A DNA stretch of 22,729 bases, taken from a virus. Its lineage: Duplodnaviria > Heunggongvirae > Uroviricota > Caudoviricetes. Both the position numbers and the translations under genes were made by a program. The notes below the pieces were generated by a model. That model was not told where the DNA came from. It saw only the letters and a list, made by a program, of their open reading frames with translations, and ran no database searches. Positions 1,096 to 18,211 of this stretch are shown here, one piece after another. The stretch is taken from IMG/VR virus record IMGVR_UViG_2529293062_000009. One strand, written 5' to 3'. Position 1 is the first letter of the stretch. Each line of letters opens with the position of its first letter.

Positions 1096-1662
1096 TTAGC
1101 CTCTTATCTTGAATTCTGCTATAACTTTGCCGATGAATACAAGGTCATTAATGTTCATATCAACAATGATATTCCCATAGTTAATCTTAACTTTATTATC
1201 AGGAATTCTAATAACTTGTTTTATAGAATGCTTTCCATCAATGGAGATTAACCAATCACCATCAACTACATCTGTGAAATCCCTCTCAATAAAATAAGAG
1301 TTATTCCCGTTTGATATCACAGATGGTGATGATAAACCATCAGGAATGAACACCTTGTCAAACATTAGTGTTCCTGCATCCAATAGCACTCCATCAATCA
1401 ATTTTATTTTTTGAATATTGATGATGTCAGAAGTTAAATATTCATGTTTAGGAGGTAAGCCTGTTACCAGCCACTTTATGTTTACTCCTGTTTCGAGCGC
1501 GCACTGAATAACCCAATCAGAAGGGAATGAATCTCTCATGTAGCGTGTAGCAAGACTGCTTTTTGATATGCCTAGTTGTTCACATAACGCCTGTCTTGTA
1601 GTGAACCCATAGGCTTCAACCATCCTTTCGATAGCTTTCTTTCCACCTTGACTAAAATCCAT
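1096..1662 (-). CDS. cI: 186-type CI immunity repressor (N-terminal helix-turn-helix)
   Basis: Minus-strand ORF; start chosen at the internal ATG 1662..1660 (MDFSQGGKKAIERM...) with SD AAGGTG 6 nt upstream; stop TAA 1096..1098. HTH-like segment TRQALCEQLGISKSSLATRYMR. Divergent from the Apl-like gene. About 188 aa, similar to 186 CI. Confidence 0.75.
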   Translation of the reverse strand: MDFSQGGKKAIERMVEAYGFTTRQALCEQLGISKSSLATRYMRDSFPSDWVIQCALETGVNIKWLVTGLPPKHEYLTSDIINIQKIKLIDGVLLDAGTLMFDKVFIPDGLSSPSVISNGNNSYFIERDFTDVVDGDWLISIDGKHSIKQVIRIPDNKVKINYGNIIVDMNINDLVFIGKVIAEFKIRG

Positions 1663-1788
1663 CGATTTCACCTTGTGAACTTTATGGTTGACGATTTCAA
1701 TTTGTGATCTTATAGTCGCATTGATTTCAAAATGTGACTTACAACTACTCGTCAATGTTAAACACACTTAAACAGGAGATGTTGCCTT
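1663..1788. promoter_or_regulatory. Lysis/lysogeny switch region between divergent cI and apl-like genes, with three phased direct repeats (candidate operator/Apl sites)
   Basis: Direct repeats GATTTCA-N4-GTGA at 1664..1678, 1693..1707 and 1723..1737, spaced 29 to 30 bp; the first overlaps the cI SD and start. Confidence 0.5.
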
Positions 1789-3593: not shown

Positions 3594-4444
3594 GCACCAT
3601 CCTGAAATGGGCAGGAAATAAAACCGCCATAATGTCCGAACTGAAAAAGCATCTTCCTGCTGGCCCGCGACTGGTTGAACCTTTCGCGGGTTCCTGTGCA
3701 GTGATGATGGAGACGGATTACCCCAGCTATCTTGTTGCGGATATTAATCCTGATTTAATCAACCTCTATAAAAAGGTTGCTGCTGATTGTGAGGCGTTTA
3801 TATCTCGTGCCAGAGCTTTATTTGAGGAAGCAAACAGGGAGGTGGCTTATTACAACATAAGGCAGGAGTTTAATTACTCCACTGAAATTACTGATTTCAT
3901 GAAAGCGGTATATTTCCTGTATCTCAATCGTCACGGTTACCGTGGTTTATGTCGCTATAACAAGAGCGGGCATTTCAACATTCCCTACGGTAATTATAAA
4001 AATCCGTATTTCCCTGAAAAAGAAATTCGCGCATTTGCAGAGAAAGCCCAGCGGGCAACGTTTATCTGCGCCAGCTTTGATGAAACGCTGGCGATGTTGA
4101 AGGTGGGGGATGTGGTGTATTGCGATCCGCCTTATGACGGTACGTTTTCCGGCTATCACACTGATGGTTTCACTGAAGATGATCAGTATCACCTGGCATC
4201 CATTCTTGAACATCGGTCATCAGAAGGACATCCGGTCATTGTTTCTAACAGTAACACGTCTTTGACCCGGTCCCTTTATCGTAATTTCACTCACCACTAC
4301 ATCAGGGCGAAACGCAGCATCGGCGTTGCAGCGGGGGAGGGAAAATTTGCAACAGAGATGATTGCCACTAAATCTGCTAATTGGTTTAGTGCCGATTTTA
4401 GTAGGGGACGTGACTCTACTGTTATTTTCGGGGTGCAAGTGTGA
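3590..4444 (+). CDS. dam: Dam-family DNA N6-adenine methyltransferase
   Basis: ATG 3590 with SD GGAGGTG, overlapping the upstream stop (ATGA). N-terminal ILKWAGNK motif (Dam FxKWAGGK-like) and catalytic DPPY (CDPPYDGTF). Confidence 0.85.
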
Positions 4445-5271
4445 AAGAAATGCACCACGGAATTCATCATTTCCATGGGACGCCTGTCTGGGGAAGTGCT
4501 GGCGACGTTCATCGTATTGCGGTGAGCGGAGCTGGCGCTTTCGTCTCCTATGTACGACCAGATCAGATTGCGGCGTCCATTCAGCACGCTCAGGTCGTCG
4601 GCATTGATAACGGCGCATTTTCTGCATGGGTGCGTGGGCTAAAAATTAACTGGAGTGATTTTTATAAATGGCTCCTGAACTATTACCACCATCCTAAGGT
4701 CGCTTTTTTTGTCATTCCTGATGTTGTGGACGGAGGTGAACGTGACAATGATGCCCTGATAAACGAAGTTCCGAAAATGTTCTACGGGAAGGCAACTCCC
4801 GTCTGGCATCTGCACGAGTCAATCGATCGGCTTATCGAGCTATGTCGTGAATGGCCTCGTGTCTGCTTTGGATCGTCTGGTGAATATGCGGCTATCAGAA
4901 CTGCGCACTGGCATCGTCGTATGCAGGACGCTTTTGAAGCAATTTATTGCCGACACAATTTCAAAACAGCTGTTCATGGTTTGCGCATGCTTGACGGTCG
5001 TGTGTTGGGAAATTACCCACTGGCGACTGCCGACAGTACAAATCTTGCCTGCAATGTCCCCAAATTTAATAGCAAATATCCTGAGCTGACGCGGGCTATT
5101 CAGGAGGCTGAGTATTCGCGCAATCTGACGGAAAAGGAGCTGAAAGCTGTCATTCTGAAAAACCGTTGCGCAATTTTAAAAGGTGCAATTGAAGCTGTTC
5201 GCCCACCTTCAGTTTCTGATTGGCTGTCGAATGGTTTGCAGCCTTCACAGCTCGAACTGGAGATTGCGTAA
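4441..5271 (+). CDS. hypothetical early protein, possibly TGT-fold (DpdA-like) DNA-modification enzyme
   Basis: 276-aa ORF; start GTG 4441 (overlapping the dam stop) or ATG 4450. Weak by-eye resemblance to tRNA-guanine transglycosylase motifs (TPVWG; IDNGAFS vs DSGGFQ; FFVIPD vs FDECT; FGSSGE vs GGLAVGE). Function not established. Confidence 0.4.
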
Positions 5272-7643
5272 TGAACTACAGCTATTCCTGGAATGCTGAG
5301 AAAAAAGCAATCAATCCTTACGTAGAGACGGAAGAGCAATCTTCAGTTTCTGCGCTTTCAAACCTGATCGCTCTGTACGCTGCCGATAACGAGCAGGAAC
5401 AGCTGCGCCGCGAGGCACTGAGTGATCAGGTCTGGGAGCGTTATTTCTTTAATGAATCCCGTGATCCTGTCCAGCGCGAAATGGAGCAGGATAAGCTCAT
5501 TAGTCGGGCAAAGCTGGCGCATGAGCAGCAGCGTTTTAATCCAGATATGGTCATTCTGGCGGACGTTAATGCCCAGCCTTCCCATATCAGCAAGCCACTG
5601 ATGCAACGTATTGAATACTTCAGCAGCCTGGGCAGGCCAAAGGCTTATTCCCGCTATTTGCGTGAGACGATTAAGCCATGTCTGGAACGGCTGGAGCATG
5701 TACGCGACTGTCAGCTATCCACTTCTTTTCGCTTTATGGCAAGCCATGAAGGGCTGGACGGCCTGCTGATCCTGCCTGAAATGAGTCAGGATCAGGTGAA
5801 ACGCCTGTCCACCCTGGTAGCTGCGCATATGAGCATGTGCCTTGATGCAGCTTGTGGCGATTTGTATGTCACCGATGACGTTAAGCCAGAAGAAATCCGC
5901 AAGACATGGGAAAAGGTGGCAGCGGAAACCCTGCGTCTGGATGTCATCCCGCCTGCGTTTGAGCAACTCCGCCGGAAAAGAAACCGCCGTAAACCCGTGC
6001 CCTATGAACTCATTCCGGGTTCGCTGGCGCGTATGTTGTGCGCTGACTGGTGGTACCGGAAATTATGGAAGATGCGTTGCGAATGGCGGGAAGAGCAGTT
6101 GCGTGCTGTCTGCCTGGTCAGCAAAAAAGCATCTCCCTATGTCAGCTATGAAGCCGTGATGCATAAACGTGAGCAGCGCCGTAAGTCGCTGGAGTTTTTT
6201 CGTTCTCATGAACTGGTGAACGAAGACGGCGACACGCTGGACATGGAGGATGTGGTAAACGCCAGCAGCAGCAACCCTGCGCATCGCCGCAATGAGATGA
6301 TGGCCTGTGTTAAAGGCCTGGAGCTTATCGCGGAAATGCGCGGTGACTGCGCCGTTTTCTACACCATCACCTGTCCGTCACGTTTCCATTCCACGCTAAA
6401 TAATGGCAGGCCCAACCCAACTTGGACAAATGCGACGGTAAGACAAAGCAGTGATTATCTGGTCGGCATGTTTGCTGCATTTCGTAAGGCGATGCACAAA
6501 GCCGGATTGCGGTGGTATGGCGTGCGGGTGGCTGAGCCGCATCATGACGGTACAGTTCACTGGCACCTGTTGTGTTTTATGCGCAAAAAAGACCGCCGCG
6601 CCATCACTGCATTACTGCGTAAGTTTGCCATCCGTGAAGACCGCGAGGAACTGGGCAATAACACTGGGCCGCGCTTTAAGTCTGAGTTGATTAACCCGCG
6701 CAAAGGTACGCCAACAAGCTACATCGCGAAATACATCAGTAAGAACATTGACGGGCGTGGTCTGGCTGGCGAGATCAGCAAGGAAACGGGGAAATCCCTG
6801 CGTGATAATGCTGAATACGTTAATGCCTGGGCGTCTCTGCATCGTGTTCAGCAATTCCGCTTCTTTGGCATTCCGGGGCGTCAGGCTTACCGTGAACTGC
6901 GATTGCTGGCTGGTCAGGCGGCAAGGCAACAGGGGGACAAAAAAGCAGGTGCGCCGGTACTGGATAACCCGCGCCTTGATGCCATCCTGGCTGCTGCTGA
7001 TGCTGGTTGTTTTGCCACCTACATCATGAAGCAGGGCGGCGTACTGGTTCCCCGCAAATATCACCTCATCAGAACCGCTTATGAAATCAACGAAGAGCCG
7101 ACCGCCTATGGCGATCACGGCATTCGTATTTATGGCATCTGGTCACCTATTGCAGAGGGCAAGATCTGCACTCATGCCGTGAAGTGGAAAATGGTTCGTA
7201 AGGCCGTTGATGTTCAGGAGGCGGCAGCCGACCAGGGCGCTTGCGCCCCTTGGACTCGTGGCAATAACTGTCCCCTTGCTGAAAATTTGAACCAACAGGA
7301 GAAAGATAAATCAGCTGATGGGGACCCCAGAACGGACATTACCAGCATGGATGACAAGGAGTTGCACGAATACCTGCACAGTATGAGCAAAAAAGAGCGC
7401 CGGGAACTGGCAGCAAGGTTACGCCTGGTGAAACCGAAACGGCGTAAAGACTACAAACAGCGAATTACAGACCATCAGCGACTGCAGCTCGTGTATGAGC
7501 TGAAGTCCAGAGGATTTGATGGCAGCGAGAAAGAGGTCGATTTACTCCTTCGCGGAGGCAGTATTCCGTCAGGAGCAGGCCTGCGTATCTTCTATCGGAA
7601 CCAGCGTTTGCAGGAAGATGATCAGTGGCGGAACCTGTATTAA
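5271..7643 (+). CDS. A: Replication initiation endonuclease (P2 gpA-type rolling-circle HUH nickase)
   Basis: 790 aa from ATG 5271 (TAATG overlap with the upstream stop). HUH-like [10 protein letters not shown] and tyrosine motif YIAKYISK. Size and position as P2 A (about 761 aa as recalled). Confidence 0.88.
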
Positions 7644-7735
7644 TTACGCGGGTTAACAATTCGTACTCTTAATAATACCAGGCATATCAGGCTGATGAAC
7701 GTAAAAAATCGTTTTACATCAGTAAGATTATTATA

Positions 7736-7755
7736 TACTGTAAATATAAACAGTG
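7736..7755 (+). promoter_or_regulatory. LexA (SOS) box overlapping a promoter upstream of the small-ORF/DinI-like pair
   Basis: TACTGTAAATATAAACAGTG, i.e. CTGT-N8-ACAG with an AT-rich spacer (consensus TACTGTATATATATACAGTA); TTTACA-like -35 just upstream at about 7713..7718. Confidence 0.7.
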
Positions 7756-7796
7756 GTTATGCATACAGCGTTGCGTGTGGTGTCATAGGAGGAAAG

Positions 7797-7985
7797 ATGC
7801 AGGACTATTTTTTGGAGTCTTTGAAGCTCCAGCGCATTGATTTTTTTCTTAAGCTTGTAGCGGCTAGTGAGTGTAGTGATGAAGAGAAGGGGCTGGCTCT
7901 GCAGTGGGTTTCTGAATTGACTGATGAACTCATGGCAAAAATCAGAACCCACGAATACAACCGCTCAATGGATGTCATCAGCTGA
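7797..7985 (+). CDS. small SOS-regulated protein, candidate Tum-like antirepressor
   Basis: ATG 7797 with SD AGGAGG 7787..7792; 62 aa (MQDYFLESLKLQRIDFF...); directly downstream of the LexA box and upstream of the DinI-like gene. Confidence 0.5.
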   Translation: MQDYFLESLKLQRIDFFLKLVAASECSDEEKGLALQWVSELTDELMAKIRTHEYNRSMDVIS

Positions 7986-7995
7986 GGTGACTTTT

Positions 7996-8229
7996 ATGCG
8001 CATTGAAATAATGATCGATAAAGAGCAGAAGATTAGCCAGTCTACCCTGGACGCCCTTGAATCCGAGCTTTACCGCAATCTGCGCCCCCTGTATCCCAAA
8101 ACGGTAATTCGCATTCGCAAAGGTAGCTCTAACGGTGTGGAACTAACCGGACTGCAACTGGACGAAGAAAGAAAACAAGTGATGAAAATTATGCAGAAGG
8201 TGTGGGAAGACGACAGCTGGCTGCATTAA
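7996..8229 (+). CDS. DinI-family protein
   Basis: ATG 7996 with SD GAGGTG; 77 aa, MRIEIMIDKEQKIS...KVWEDDSWLH, resembling E. coli DinI (MRIEVTIAK...TWESADDWF). Confidence 0.75.
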   Translation: MRIEIMIDKEQKISQSTLDALESELYRNLRPLYPKTVIRIRKGSSNGVELTGLQLDEERKQVMKIMQKVWEDDSWLH

Positions 8230-8364
8230 GAAACGTTGCTGGCGTCTGAACTTGCTTCTGGCGTCAGCAAGGTTGAACAACGAGCCCTTGCGAGGCGTTA
8301 GCTCTGTAGTGCATGTCTATGCCGCATGAGATCGCATGATCGTTTGAGGATCGTTTTTGCTAAG

Positions 8365-8388
8365 GCCCGCCAGAACTGGCGGGCTTTT
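8365..8388 (+). terminator. Rho-independent terminator downstream of the DinI-like gene
   Basis: GC-rich inverted repeat GCCCGCCAG / CTGGCGGGC with a short loop, followed by TTTT. Confidence 0.6.
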
Positions 8389-8481
8389 GCGTAGATCATG
8401 CAGGTGCATGAAAACCACTACATAAAGCGGGCAGGCGTGGCGGGGATACGAGCGCGCGTTAAGCCATATAAGAGTTATATA

Positions 8482-8510
8482 TTGATTTGATTGCTGGACA
8501 TACATACAGT
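8482..8510 (+). promoter_or_regulatory. putative sigma70 promoter for the kinase operon
   Basis: TTGATT, 17-nt spacer, TACAGT, about 95 nt upstream of ATG 8605 in an AT-rich tract; by-eye match only. Confidence 0.3.
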
Positions 8511-8604
8511 ATCGCTCTATCATCTAATAAATCTTAGGGTATTTGACAATGTTTGGATAAAATGGAACCTAACTTATTCATAATCCGCTAAACAGGGATG
8601 TCAG

Positions 8605-9519
8605 ATGCCATACCAATTGGTAGAGCTTAGCCCCGTAGCTAACGATCTTGAACAGTTAGGAACCAAAGAGAAGTTTTGGTTCTATTTCTCCGATGACACT
8701 GTAAATTTGCAGTTGTTTAAGTACTCTAGGCCAGGTACTGGCGAGCATTGGTCTGAAAAGTGTGCTGCTGAGTTATGTCATTTGCTTAACATTCCACATG
8801 CTAGCTATGATTTGGCGCGATACAATGGTCGATTCGGTGTGGTGACTCAGAATATCATTCCATCTGGTTTCCGGATGGTAATGGGAAATGAAGTGCTTCA
8901 CAGTTCGACATTCGATTATCCTGGGCCTTTACAAGCCGGGGAAAAGCCGGTAAGGGTCAGAGAACACACTGTCACAAGGGTCTTGGGTTGTTTAGATAGG
9001 GAATCTATCAAGCCTCCTCCGAGTGTATATGATCTAACCGGGCTAAATGCAGCAGATGTATTTTGTGGATATTTGATGCTCGATGCACTTGTGAGTAATC
9101 AAGATCGCCACCATGAAAATTGGGCAATCATGCTTAACAATGAAACTGGTGAGCAGTTTTTGTGTCCAACATACGATCATGCCGCTAGTTTAGGAAGGGA
9201 GATGTTAGATGATGAGCGTAACGAACGGCTTAATACTAAAGATAAAAATCGACAAATCCCATGTTTTGTAAGAAAAGCTCGCTCTGAGCTATTCAAAGCA
9301 AAAACTGATAAAAAGCCCTTGCTGACTGTTGAAGCATTTCAACATGCAGTTGAAGGGAGAGTTGCCGCTCGCGACCATTGGTTAGGTAAGTTGAGCGTTT
9401 TAACAGAAGATTCCATTACAGATGTGTTTAACCAAGTGCCTTCATCGTGTATATCCGACAGTGCACGTAGATTTGCAACGTTAATGGTAATGGAAAATCG
9501 CAGAAGGTTACTAGAATGA
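8605..9519 (+). CDS. HipA-like Ser/Thr protein kinase (compact, HipA C-terminal kinase core)
   Basis: 304 aa. Gly-rich loop-like GTKEKFWF (residues 19-26), catalytic DxHxxN as D167-R-H169-H-E-N172 within LVSNQDRHHENWAIM (nt about 9094..9120), downstream CPTYDHAASLG resembling the HipA Mg-binding Asp motif. Stop overlaps the next start (ATGA). Confidence 0.75.
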   Translation: MPYQLVELSPVANDLEQLGTKEKFWFYFSDDTVNLQLFKYSRPGTGEHWSEKCAAELCHLLNIPHASYDLARYNGRFGVVTQNIIPSGFRMVMGNEVLHSSTFDYPGPLQAGEKPVRVREHTVTRVLGCLDRESIKPPPSVYDLTGLNAADVFCGYLMLDALVSNQDRHHENWAIMLNNETGEQFLCPTYDHAASLGREMLDDERNERLNTKDKNRQIPCFVRKARSELFKAKTDKKPLLTVEAFQHAVEGRVAARDHWLGKLSVLTEDSITDVFNQVPSSCISDSARRFATLMVMENRRRLLE

Positions 9520-10256
9520 CTAATACAAACTCCGTTTACGTCGCATGGCAGGCACCAGATACCAGAGACTGGCATGTTGTTGGTAACTTGCAAGAGCGCA
9601 AATCGGGGTATGTTTTCAGGTATACCAAAGGTGCTCTTAAATCTTCTAAATTTACAAAGTTTAGCGGCATGAGTGATGTTCGTGAAACTTATGTATCGGA
9701 AGAATTGTTTCCTCTTTTTAAAAATCGCCTTTTATCACCGAGACGTCCAGAGTATCCGAGTTTCATTAAATGGCTTGGATTTGAAGAAGATAAGGTAAAT
9801 CCTATCGATATTCTTGCTCGCTCGGGAGGCTTACGAAGCACTGATCAGCTGCAGATTTTCAAAAAAATTGATTTTGATTCTGATGGTAACTTTGAGCATT
9901 TTTTCTTCTTACATGGACTTGGTTACTTGAATAGCTTAGCTAATGCTCGTGTATCTGAATTGAAACCGGGGCAAATTTTGCGTCTTTGCTTGGATCTTCA
10001 AAATGAATACGATGGGGATGCTGTTGTCGTTCGTGCAGATAAACCAGCTGAAATCGTTGGTTACTGCCCTAGGTATTTAAGTAATGACATCAAGAAGATG
10101 TTATTGGATGATCCAAAATCAATCACTTTAACGGTCGAAAAGATTAGCGATGATGCTCCTCATAACTATCGGTTATTATGTAAATTATCAGGGGTACTAA
10201 GCCAAGCCTGTCAATCGACGCTGATTCCTCAAGATGAGTTTGAACCTATTGAGTAA
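9516..10256 (+). CDS. HIRAN-motif protein (C-terminal HIRAN-like domain), partner of the HipA-like kinase
   Basis: 246 aa, translationally coupled to the kinase gene. C-terminal LRLCLDLQNEYDGDAVVVRADKPAEIVGYCPRYLSN matches the HIRAN pattern (NPYDxNAIxV...VGYIPR); N-terminal part unassigned. Confidence 0.55.
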   Translation: MTNTNSVYVAWQAPDTRDWHVVGNLQERKSGYVFRYTKGALKSSKFTKFSGMSDVRETYVSEELFPLFKNRLLSPRRPEYPSFIKWLGFEEDKVNPIDILARSGGLRSTDQLQIFKKIDFDSDGNFEHFFFLHGLGYLNSLANARVSELKPGQILRLCLDLQNEYDGDAVVVRADKPAEIVGYCPRYLSNDIKKMLLDDPKSITLTVEKISDDAPHNYRLLCKLSGVLSQACQSTLIPQDEFEPIE

Positions 10257-10263
10257 ATGAAGA

Positions 10264-10290
10264 AAAGCCACCAAACGGTGGCTTTTCTTA
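10264..10290. terminator. Bidirectional rho-independent terminator between the convergent HIRAN gene and portal gene
   Basis: AAAGCCACC-aaac-GGTGGCTTT with A-tract on the left and T-tract on the right; the portal stop codon is at 10291..10293. Confidence 0.65.
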
Positions 10291-11331
10291 TTATGGGGCT
10301 ATATCTAGCGAGTAGGTATCAAACCGTATCGCCTCCTTGCCAAGCCAATCATTCATCTCCTGTAATCGCTTTTGTAGTGGCATTAGCTCATTTCGGACGA
10401 ATACACGGCTTGCCTTCTCCACATCCCCAAACCCCCCAACATTATTCGGCATAATCCCCATCATTTGCGGTGGCACACGGTGCGCTGCCATCATGTCATC
10501 GCGGCTGACATTTTTGATATTCAGAAACTCATCCTTCGCCGCGACTTCTGACAATGGGATGATCTGAAGTCCGTCCTTTTTGCCGTTAGGCGAGTACATA
10601 AACAGATTGCGGAAGTTACCTGGTCCTTTGGCGCTTTTCATCGCGTTACGGAGGTTGTTTACATCCTCCTGGTTCTGCGCGGCGTCGGTCATGTACATGA
10701 TGAAGCCTGCATGACTGCCGTTAATGTAATACTTTCGACGGAACAGCGTGGCGGACTCGTTGAGCAGGGCTGACGGAATGGCAGAAAGATAACCAGGCAG
10801 GCCGTAGATCTCCTGGTTGATGTCCGGTTCCATCAGATGAAAAATGTTGCCTTTCGTGAACTGATACGGCTGTGTAGTCATGCCGTATTGCACAAACCAG
10901 TAGGTATCAAGGTCTAACCCGCGTCGGGTGTATTTTGCCAGTGCAGGCTCAAGGGCGATAACTTCACCGAAGCGGTTCGTGCGTTTCTCCAGGTAGGCGT
11001 TACCAAAAACCAGATAGTCCTGTACAAAACGCGAAAAAGCCTGCTGGCTGAGCAGCGGGTGAGGGATGTAGGTGCTGGTCAGAATGTTGCACTTCACTGC
11101 AATCGGTGAGCTGTGATGCACGGCGGCGCGGAAGGTTCGCGCCAGTCCGTCGAAACTCACAGGCGGCTCGTACCAACGATCCATCTGTACGCATTCCACA
11201 TAGTCCAGCAGTTCGCGGCGGTCCAGAACAGGAACGGGATCACCGAAGCTGAATGCTTCGGCTGAAGTCTGGCTTTTATGCTGGATCTGTTTCGTCGACG
11301 CAGCGCGGTTCTTCTTACTCTTTCCCATCAA
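10291..11331 (-). CDS. Q: Portal protein (P2 gpQ-type)
   Basis: 346 aa, minus strand, directly downstream of the terminase gene and overlapping its stop; size and position as P2 Q (about 344 aa as recalled). Confidence 0.88.
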   Translation of the reverse strand: MMGKSKKNRAASTKQIQHKSQTSAEAFSFGDPVPVLDRRELLDYVECVQMDRWYEPPVSFDGLARTFRAAVHHSSPIAVKCNILTSTYIPHPLLSQQAFSRFVQDYLVFGNAYLEKRTNRFGEVIALEPALAKYTRRGLDLDTYWFVQYGMTTQPYQFTKGNIFHLMEPDINQEIYGLPGYLSAIPSALLNESATLFRRKYYINGSHAGFIMYMTDAAQNQEDVNNLRNAMKSAKGPGNFRNLFMYSPNGKKDGLQIIPLSEVAAKDEFLNIKNVSRDDMMAAHRVPPQMMGIMPNNVGGFGDVEKASRVFVRNELMPLQKRLQEMNDWLGKEAIRFDTYSLDIAP

Positions 11332-18078: not shown

Positions 18079-18211
18079 CGGTGATCTGAACGCGTTGCTG
18101 GATGAAACGGAGGCCGCCTGGGCGGTCTGTGCAGACAAAGTGGACATGATTATTGCGTGTCAGGAGCGAAACAGTGAACAAACCACAATCCCTGCGCCAC
18201 GCCCTCAATAA
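17921..18211 (+). CDS. lysC: LysC, Rz1-like outer-membrane lipoprotein spanin, embedded in lysB in another frame
   Basis: 96-aa ORF in a different frame starting inside lysB (GTG 17921); signal peptide plus lipobox LLCLLTLSGC; Pro-rich C-terminus. Confidence 0.55.
   Translation: MRTRIYAAGLILLCLLTLSGCGNVRHSPEVWLTVSGCPRVTPCRLDQATPRTNGDLNALLDETEAAWAVCADKVDMIIACQERNSEQTTIPAPRPQ

Follow-up and report, generated by a model that had tools for sequence, protein, structure and literature searches.

Gene content and layout of the gpA-to-portal interval

The window analyzed here is the whole 22,729-nucleotide (nt) stretch of IMG/VR record IMGVR_UViG_2529293062_000009 (Caudoviricetes), which, judged by its genes, is a 186-like prophage of the P2 family (Peduoviridae). 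A 186-type CI repressor (1096-1767, minus strand; PF07022 and PF16452), CII/CP76, Fil, a Dam methylase, and a DksA-like zinc finger protein are all encoded in it. The subject of this analysis is the segment from 7644 to 10290, the exact gap between the stop codon of the replication gene gpA and that of the portal gene, the latter being followed by terminase and capsid genes. The segment carries an SOS operon (orf62 and a gene for a DinI-like protein), the cohesive-end site cos, and a two-gene kinase operon, hipIN. With gpA and portal homologues as its flanks (PF05840 and PF04860) and cos at 8434-8452 inside it, this slot is very likely the known cos-adjacent gpA-gpQ hotspot of P2-family phages, and its layout and the cargo status of its contents can together be stated with high confidence. 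An earlier note on this DNA had placed an SOS-regulated DinI-like module and a kinase/HIRAN operon at 7644-10290, between gene A and the portal end. That gene content and those coordinates were recovered in full, together with the cos site, which the note had overlooked and which separates the SOS module from the kinase module. The main features are as follows.

5220..7643, plus strand: gpA replication endonuclease, the left anchor (PF05840, 4.7e-128; 31% identical to P2 A)
7797..7985, plus strand: orf62, first gene of the SOS operon (phrog_698, 3.6e-38; no Pfam match)
7996..8229, plus strand: DinI-like protein of 77 amino acids (PF06183, 6.6e-23), corresponding to 186 Tum's C-terminal domain
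8228..8310, no strand: sub-slot 1 (DinI to cos), empty here, delimited by the homology breakpoints of relatives
8405..8460, no strand: cos region, with the 19-nt cohesive end GGCGTGGCGGGGATACGAG at 8434-8452
8461..10290, plus strand: hipIN cassette, exchangeable cargo in sub-slot 2 (cos to portal), of low GC content and absent from relatives with the same flanks
8605..9519, plus strand: hipI, small HipA-family Ser/Thr kinase of 304 amino acids (PDC-M03A, 2.1e-122)
9516..10256, plus strand: hipN, 246 amino acids, with a HipS-like N-terminal domain and, at the C terminus, a HIRAN domain (PDC-M03B, 6.8e-93; PF08797, 1e-13)
10291..11331, minus strand: portal gene (gpQ/W homologue), the right anchor (PF04860; 62% identical to P2 Q)

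Exchange of the kinase operon between near-identical backbones

Seventy-three phage records match the flanks of the slot, none of which covers 80% of 5220-11331, and four of these relatives were examined in detail. All four are 96 to 99% identical to the window from a point within gpA (5346) to 8227 or 8458, and the gpA DNA itself is 95 to 97% identical to that of relatives. Homology resumes only within the portal gene's 3' end, at 10358 to 10372 in three of the four (90 to 94% identity) and at 10301 in the fourth (81% identity). To the right of cos, the relatives carry Hypoth_Ymh, the reverse transcriptase and effector of retron St85, Abi-alpha/AIPR, or a TIR protein. In two of them, the stretch from the DinI stop codon (8229) to 8310 is additionally interrupted by an insertion.

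The junctions of the cassette can be placed closely. On the left, homology to the relatives stops at 8458 to 8464, which is 6 to 12 bp beyond the cohesive end. On the right, the last ~20 to 27 codons of the portal gene (10291 to ~10370) differ among close relatives and are the same in all carriers of hipIN, and the right junction therefore lies inside the portal 3' end. As far as these alignments indicate, the C-terminal tail of the portal protein travels with the cassette. Acquisition was by recombination, with one junction just past cos and the other within the last ~25 portal codons.

Two surveys addressed how widely the parts of the slot are shared. Among 5,426 complete Escherichia coli genomes, queried with the left flank (7644-8460) and the cargo (8470-10290), the left flank was found in 1,281 (828 with at least 80% query coverage) and the hipIN cargo in 21, always at an identity of at least 99%. 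The second survey comprised 80 loci of species-representative genomes, fetched by portal similarity; in 57 of them, gpA follows downstream of the portal gene across a slot of 1.0 to 5.2 kb. In the 52 of these slots with a recognizable cos core, 250 open reading frames fall into 138 families, 103 of which were seen once, and the widely shared families are just orf62 and DinI, plus one spurious open reading frame that spans the cos block (14 loci). Whereas orf62 occurs in 44 of the 57 slots, and orf62 or DinI in 52, hipI and hipN occur together in a single one. Set against the earlier note's own criterion for refutation, the survey shows an SOS module that behaves like core of the lineage and a kinase operon that behaves like cargo.

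The earlier note had viewed both modules as cargo exchanged into the A-to-portal slot and had suggested comparing the slot across related prophages. For the kinase operon that view stands: unrelated genes occupy its place between flanks that are 91 to 99% identical, and it is far from universally conserved (1 of 57 slots; 21 E. coli genomes versus the 1,281 with the flank). It falls for the SOS module, whose conservation across the slots makes it core.

The note had also called the kinase operon compositionally distinct and had suggested comparing the composition of the whole slot with that of the backbone. Windowed GC content, GC content at third codon positions (GC3), and codon usage gave the following values.

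8461-10290, cargo: GC 0.406; GC3 0.37 (kinase gene) and 0.33 (HIRAN gene)
Late backbone: GC 0.562; GC3 0.57 to 0.70 (gpA and late genes)
cos block, 8230-8460: GC 0.55; GC3 not applicable
SOS genes: GC 0.44 to 0.47; GC3 0.52 to 0.56, like gpA

The kinase operon is thus distinct from the backbone, whose GC content is 0.55, on both GC and GC3, and the codon usage of its genes diverges from the backbone by 0.136 to 0.138, while backbone genes diverge by 0.03 to 0.06. To the right of position 1780, the lowest GC of any backbone window as long as the cargo (1,830 bp) is 0.469, and the composition changes where homology to the relatives breaks off and resumes. The SOS genes, in contrast, match gpA in GC3.

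Two sub-slots on either side of cos

The cos site was placed by comparison with 186 and P2: the first 13 nt of the cohesive end are identical to 186 cos, and the block 8300-8460 aligns with the circularized end junctions of P2 and 186. P2 carries orf91, tin, and old between A and cosR, and 186 has tum and orf97 in the corresponding place; in both phages the distance from the cohesive end to the portal-gene terminator is just ~140 to 145 bp. In the window, cos is separated from the portal stop codon by ~1.84 kb; this stretch holds the kinase operon, which would come at the far left end of the genome as packaged. Because this operon sits between cos and the portal gene, and tin and old sit between A and cos, it is not in the tin/old position. 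The proposal that it replaces tin and old is thus positionally inexact, and the slot also holds no Tin or Old homology: tblastn searches (E up to 10) for homologues of tin, old, orf91, and orf97 gave only noise within 7644-10290, so that the orf97 of 186 has no homologue there, and the single Old-like match in the window lies at another locus (39-272). The P2 tin/old genes are nonessential anti-phage cargo in the same A-to-Q interval, but they are transcribed in the opposite direction, lie on the other side of cos, and are not homologous to hipIN.

The position of P2 tin/old and of 186 orf97 corresponds instead to sub-slot 1, the short stretch between the DinI gene and cos that is empty in the window. 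It contains a hairpin at 8232-8274 (-23.5 kcal/mol; z score, -3.3) with no U-tract. Around insertions at this site, the homology of relatives stops at 8227 or 8284 and resumes at 8308 to 8311, and the insertions seen elsewhere are a 678-bp open reading frame, a 531-bp open reading frame, or a SIR2 gene with an ATPase gene. A cos core is recognizable in 52 of the 57 surveyed slots, with 460 to 4,390 bp from A to cos and 169 to 3,511 bp from cos to the portal gene. The right sub-slot is occupied (more than 400 bp) in 44 of these 52 loci, the left interval holds more than the SOS operon (more than 1,100 bp) in 30, and both sides are occupied in 23. The same hipIN occurs with four fillings of sub-slot 1 (the 531-bp open reading frame, SIR2 plus ATPase, the 678-bp open reading frame, and nothing), and the two sub-slots therefore assort independently.

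Identity and mobility of the hipIN pair

The two adjacent genes to the right of cos match the PADLOC models PDC-M03A and PDC-M03B over their full lengths. By these model matches, the kinase/HIRAN pair is the hipIN described by Gerdes, Baerentsen & Brodersen in 2021 (PMC8262856) and the PADLOC candidate PDC-M03. The arrangement agrees with that description, in which the gene for a small HipA-family kinase is followed by an overlapping gene for a HipS-like plus HIRAN protein; here the kinase gene also comes first, and the overlap is 4 nt (ATGA, 9516-9519). The HIRAN domain (PF08797) spans HipN residues 127 to 228. Pfam HipA_C on HipI alone scored below its curated cutoff (20.7 versus 30.5 bits). 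Single-sequence searches of the PDB with HipI and HipN gave nothing significant, and profile searches of the same database gave just CtkA (1.4e-3) and lp_0118 (0.38).

Links at the sequence level are weak; the assignment of both proteins rests mainly on predicted folds. The AlphaFold2 model of HipI (mean predicted local distance difference test [pLDDT] score, 83.6) was matched by Foldseek to CtkA (3e-10), HipA (~1e-5), and HipT, and its invariant residues D167, N172, and D191 align with D309, N314, and D332 of HipA, although this hhalign alignment is weak (E, 0.047). The model of HipN (pLDDT, 89.5) was matched to the HIRAN domains of lp_0118 and of HLTF with and without DNA (3k2y and 4xzg/4s0n; E, ~1e-5 to 1e-4) and, separately, to the HipS protein of HipBST (7ab3_E; E, 1.8e-3; TM score, 0.70) as well as to 7vkb_B. 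The HipBST system of E. coli O127 (7AB3) likewise has a kinase that lacks the N-subdomain 1 of HipA, and the fold of HipS is that of the N-terminal domain of HipN. HipBST differs from hipIN in three respects: hipIN has no HipB-like helix-turn-helix component, its HipS-like part is fused to a HIRAN domain, and its kinase gene comes first. By analogy with these systems, hipIN is probably a toxin/antitoxin-like kinase pair. The case for an anti-phage role is evenly balanced.

The kinase-first pair is kept in all 11 other contexts examined. These include other P2-like slots, an E217-like prophage, where the pair lies among tail genes, and lambdoid nin regions. Further copies occur in the asd-gyrB gap of a Proteus-type chromosome, in an E. 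coli island next to a two-partner secretion locus, and on chromosomes of Vibrio and Ectopseudomonas. This range of sites indicates that the cassette is mobile.

Promoter, terminators, and LexA-like box of hipIN

The transcription signals of the kinase operon are listed below.

8495..8523, plus strand: promoter-like site (TGGACA, 17 nt, TATCAT; 10/12 match)
8492..8511, no strand: LexA-like box 2, TGCTGGACATACATACAGTA, 16/20 to the consensus, with intact CTG/CAG cores, overlapping the -35 element of the kinase promoter
10260..10289, no strand: bidirectional intrinsic terminator serving the kinase and the portal/terminase operons (13-bp stem, U-tracts on both strands; z scores, -6.7/-7.0)

Promoter-like sites are not enriched in the region (2 found versus 5.6 expected), and both hexamers of this one are conserved in a relative (L014) and in an unrelated island (L094). 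The site at 8495-8523 and the hairpins at 8362-8389 and 10260-10289 bear out the promoter-like tract and flanking terminators that the earlier note had assigned to the kinase operon. Its further claim, that the operon is independent of the SOS response, is not clearly so, as the promoter overlaps a LexA-like box.

LexA operators were recognized as CTG-N10-CAG palindromes close to TACTGTATATATATACAGTA. Only two sites in the 22.7 kb fall within five mismatches of this consensus, box 1 of the SOS operon (7736-7755) and box 2. A CTG-N10-CAG box is found at -101 to -136 from the hipI start codon in all nine Enterobacterales contexts, whatever the surrounding element, and several of these boxes are near perfect, for example TGCTGTATATAAATACAGTA and TACTGTATATAAATACAGTC. 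In IMG/VR, 32 of 43 unique upstream regions of hipI hold a box with at most five mismatches, and 3 more hold one with six mismatches; the background rate is 0.013 per 300 nt, calculated from 1.59 Mb of P2-like loci. The box is present upstream of all hipI homologues of at least 66% identity and of none at or below 60%, and positions 3 to 5 and 15 to 18 are invariant among the 27 distinct box sequences. The conservation of the box across contexts means that the cassette seems to travel with its own SOS operator. LexA control of hipIN is favored by these patterns, if not strongly, and both modules of the slot would then probably respond to the same signal. The words "LexA" and "SOS" appear nowhere in PMC8262856, and literature searches, including HIRAN combined with LexA, gave no report of SOS control of hipIN. 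The conserved LexA-like operator is apparently the sole element of the present account that is unreported.

A possible sensor-kinase role for hipIN

One possible reading of these features, put forward tentatively, is that hipIN is an SOS-wired sensor-kinase switch, with its own LexA operator, derepressed through RecA, and a HIRAN domain that reads 3' ends and releases the kinase. The mechanism judged most likely runs as follows. LexA would hold expression of the operon low through the box that overlaps the -35 element. HipN would bind and inactivate HipI through its HipS-like N-terminal domain, as HipS binds HipT, and its HIRAN domain would sense free 3' DNA ends, such as those of phage genomes, of replication or packaging intermediates, or of damaged DNA. 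The freed HipI would phosphorylate an essential translation factor, by analogy with the action of HipA on GltX and of HipT on TrpS, and the outcome would be growth arrest, abortive infection, or dormancy. The DNA-end-sensing part of this mechanism was proposed in PMC8262856, and the LexA layer is the addition of the present analysis. If the reading as an SOS-wired switch is correct, the pair would be an uncharacterized defense or dormancy system with two successive inputs of the DNA damage type, the first transcriptional and the second posttranslational. Derepression would follow DNA damage, phage attack, or the induction of its own prophage, and hipIN would be switched on at the same time as the Tum-like induction operon, which lies 0.7 kb from it.

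Several points weigh against parts of the account given here. Box 2 has four mismatches to the consensus and reads CTGG rather than CTGT in this lineage, as does the functional ruvA operator of E. coli. Since the left half-site of the box doubles as the -35 element, its conservation could partly reflect constraint on the promoter, and the box is absent from the more distant homologues of Vibrio and Ectopseudomonas (Pseudomonas type). The links of the pair to HipA and HipS are weak at the sequence level (hhalign E, 0.05 to 0.09), and a simple terminator scan missed the hairpins at 8362-8389 and 10260-10289, both of which rest on folding. Literature searches gave no experimental validation of toxicity, neutralization, or phage defense for hipIN or PDC-M03; no member of the hipIN clade had been analyzed experimentally as of PMC8262856, and a 2025 paper still describes the defense function of the HipA/HIRAN pair as a prediction.

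The main rival, which is rather unlikely, holds that hipIN is an SOS-induced dormancy or addiction module, derepressed on DNA damage, whose kinase arrests growth (persistence) or stabilizes the prophage, and that it has no anti-phage function. In its favor, a LexA-like box is conserved upstream of hipI in Enterobacterales, the kinases of the HipA family are classic persistence toxins, and HIRAN acts at damaged or stalled forks (PMC8262856); one copy of the pair, moreover, resides in a core chromosomal location, the asd-gyrB gap. Against a purely dormancy-related function stand the strong association of the pair with prophage hotspots that are rich in validated defense genes, its listing by PADLOC as a defense candidate, and a turnover as rapid as that of defense cargo.

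The SOS operon as backbone and the cassette as cargo

The SOS operon directly follows gpA, and its regulatory features are as follows.

7713..7741, plus strand: p95-like promoter (-35 TTTACA at 7713-7718, 17-nt spacer, -10 TACTGT at 7736-7741), read from the sequence
7736..7755, no strand: LexA box 1, TACTGTAAATATAAACAGTG, 17/20 to the LexA consensus (3 mismatches)
8362..8389, plus strand: intrinsic terminator ending the operon (t95b-like), GGCCCGCCAG-AACU-CUGGCGGGCC followed by UUUU (-23.4 kcal/mol; z score, -4.3)

Box 1 contains the sole perfect CTGT-N8-ACAG match of the window (7738-7753), and 200 dinucleotide shuffles of the window yielded zero LexA sites with four or fewer mismatches. The first six bases of the box, TACTGT, double as the -10 hexamer. 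The same design is found in the p95-tum-orf97 operon of phage 186, where the annotated LexA-regulated promoter p95 reads TTCACA, 18 nt, TACTGT, with the -10 hexamer formed by the first 6 nt of the LexA box, and where the operon likewise lies directly after gene A and is followed by terminators and then cos. The terminator at 8362-8389 is kept in relatives and aligns with the 186 junction. Residues 71 to 145 of Tum are matched by the DinI-like protein at 41% identity (E, 3e-24). On the strength of this match and of the shared promoter and LexA layout, the SOS operon appears to be the positional and regulatory counterpart of the 186 p95-tum operon, split into two genes, orf62 and the gene for the 77-amino-acid DinI-like protein, whereas Tum is a single protein of 146 amino acids.

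Because the 186-type CI repressor is not cleavable by RecA, the SOS operon would couple induction of the prophage to the SOS response, by analogy with 186 tum, and would act as an antirepressor of CI. The candidate antirepressor partner is orf62, a role suggested by its position. BLASTP of orf62 against 186 Tum gave no alignment; the protein has no detectable similarity to the Tum N terminus, which counts against that role and makes it a positional inference, and the idea that orf62 is itself the Tum N terminus was dropped.

UniProt has a protein of identical sequence to the DinI-like protein under the name "DinI-like protein in retron Ec67"; it follows that the classic retron-Ec67 phage has the backbone seen here, with its retron located in this same hotspot. 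Two side observations concern this gene. An in-frame ATG at 7924, upstream of its start codon, would give a 101-amino-acid form, as annotated in Fels-2. Within the DinI coding sequence, several relatives have another perfect CTGT-N8-ACAG, CTGTATCCCAAAACAG (L014, L019, L021, L023, L026, L029, and L033; slot position, ~455 to 459), and its counterpart in the window, ctgtatcccaaaacgg at ~8091-8106, has one mismatch; this LexA-like box is probably a coincidence of coding (LYPKT motif).

The relation of this operon to the kinase operon can also be explained by assuming, as the earlier note did, that both are cargo and that they jointly replaced orf91-tin-old at the same position. P2 lacks the SOS module and has orf91, tin, and old after A, the overall GC content of the SOS segment (0.43) is below that of the late genes, and DinI is missing in 32 of the 57 related slots. 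This explanation is nonetheless improbable and largely refuted by the slot survey, as orf62 or DinI is present in 52 of the 57, mostly with a LexA box just upstream (a perfect LexA core within 150 nt of the first SOS gene in 36 of these 52), and the module is 96 to 99% identical in relatives with other cargo and resembles gpA in GC3. It has, in addition, the promoter/operator design of 186 p95-tum and co-occurs with a 186-type CI, and the kinase operon lies across cos from the tin/old position. The SOS module can be assigned with strong confidence to the backbone of the lineage.

A very improbable alternative is that HipN and HipI serve the life cycle of the phage itself at cos, for example by binding or protecting the cohesive 3' ends or by regulating packaging. 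The cassette does adjoin cos directly, and HIRAN domains bind 3' DNA ends, but just ~1.6% of the E. coli genomes that hold the flank carry the cassette, relatives have unrelated genes at the same spot, and the pair is also seen at places with no cos nearby, namely in prophages of the lambdoid and E217-like types and at chromosomal sites; the rarity of the cassette beside the same flank and its presence away from cos led to rejection of this idea. Least probable of all, and rejected too, is an origin of the GC dip in the local properties of short AT-rich regulatory genes: other genes of the early region are also below late-gene GC (0.46 to 0.51), but the dip begins and ends exactly at the homology breakpoints (8458-8464 and 10301-10372), a same-size backbone window to the right of 1780 never falls below 0.469, and the cos block between the modules is at 0.55.

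Other features of the window

A further locus resembling cargo lies at the left end of the window. A minus-strand open reading frame starting at ~1094 (MNITRLKLKNW...), directly downstream of the CI gene, runs for at least 364 amino acids and exits the window. For this frame (1-1094), matches were obtained to the PADLOC candidate HEC-01A (2.4e-151) and to Pfam AAA_21/AAA_15, together with a weak likeness to Old, and the GC content of the region is low (0.33 to 0.39). The prophage thus seems to have a second cargo or defense-candidate locus in its CI-int interval.

No Pfam match was obtained for a 276-amino-acid open reading frame (4441-5271) that lies between gpA and the Dam methylase gene. 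The frame extends past 5220, the TTG listed as the gpA start; the annotated start of gpA in relatives is slightly later. Across the whole window, Rfam and tRNA scans gave no RNA genes.

Relation to the published hotspot and significance

Rousset et al. (2022; PMC9122126) described this hotspot between gpA and gpQ, next to cos, with 1,650 arrangements at 18,150 E. coli loci. Table S5A of that paper lists WP_023568565 together with WP_000185757 (HIRAN), along with DinI and combined with DarTG or Mrr, and Table S6 lists a "HIRAN-kinase" in a Vibrio prophage hotspot. WP_023568565 and WP_000185757 are annotated on a 99%-identical cassette of strain EC361 (L093). Moura de Sousa et al. (2026; PMC13586616) report that the defense loci of P2-like phages are swapped rapidly and that near-identical defense systems occur in other elements and at cryptic chromosomal sites. 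The slot analyzed here has the same anchors, the same position beside cos, and the same variable content between near-identical backbones, and in nothing essential does it differ. Two independently filled sub-slots around cos and a conserved SOS operon are not spelled out in the consulted text of the two papers.

Cargo exchange in the A-to-portal slot is therefore a correct but already published phenomenon, and the value of this prophage is mostly that of a correctly annotated example of a known hotspot. In its 186-like form, the hotspot combines a conserved SOS-induction operon with two sub-slots that lie to either side of cos and are filled separately. Since the SOS operon is conserved, automated extraction that treats everything between A and Q as cargo over-calls cargo, and such over-calling may explain the recurrence of DinI in the loci of Table S5A, the part of PMC9122126 in which it is listed. 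For the hipIN/PDC-M03 candidate, the conserved LexA operator provides a simple and testable regulatory hypothesis.

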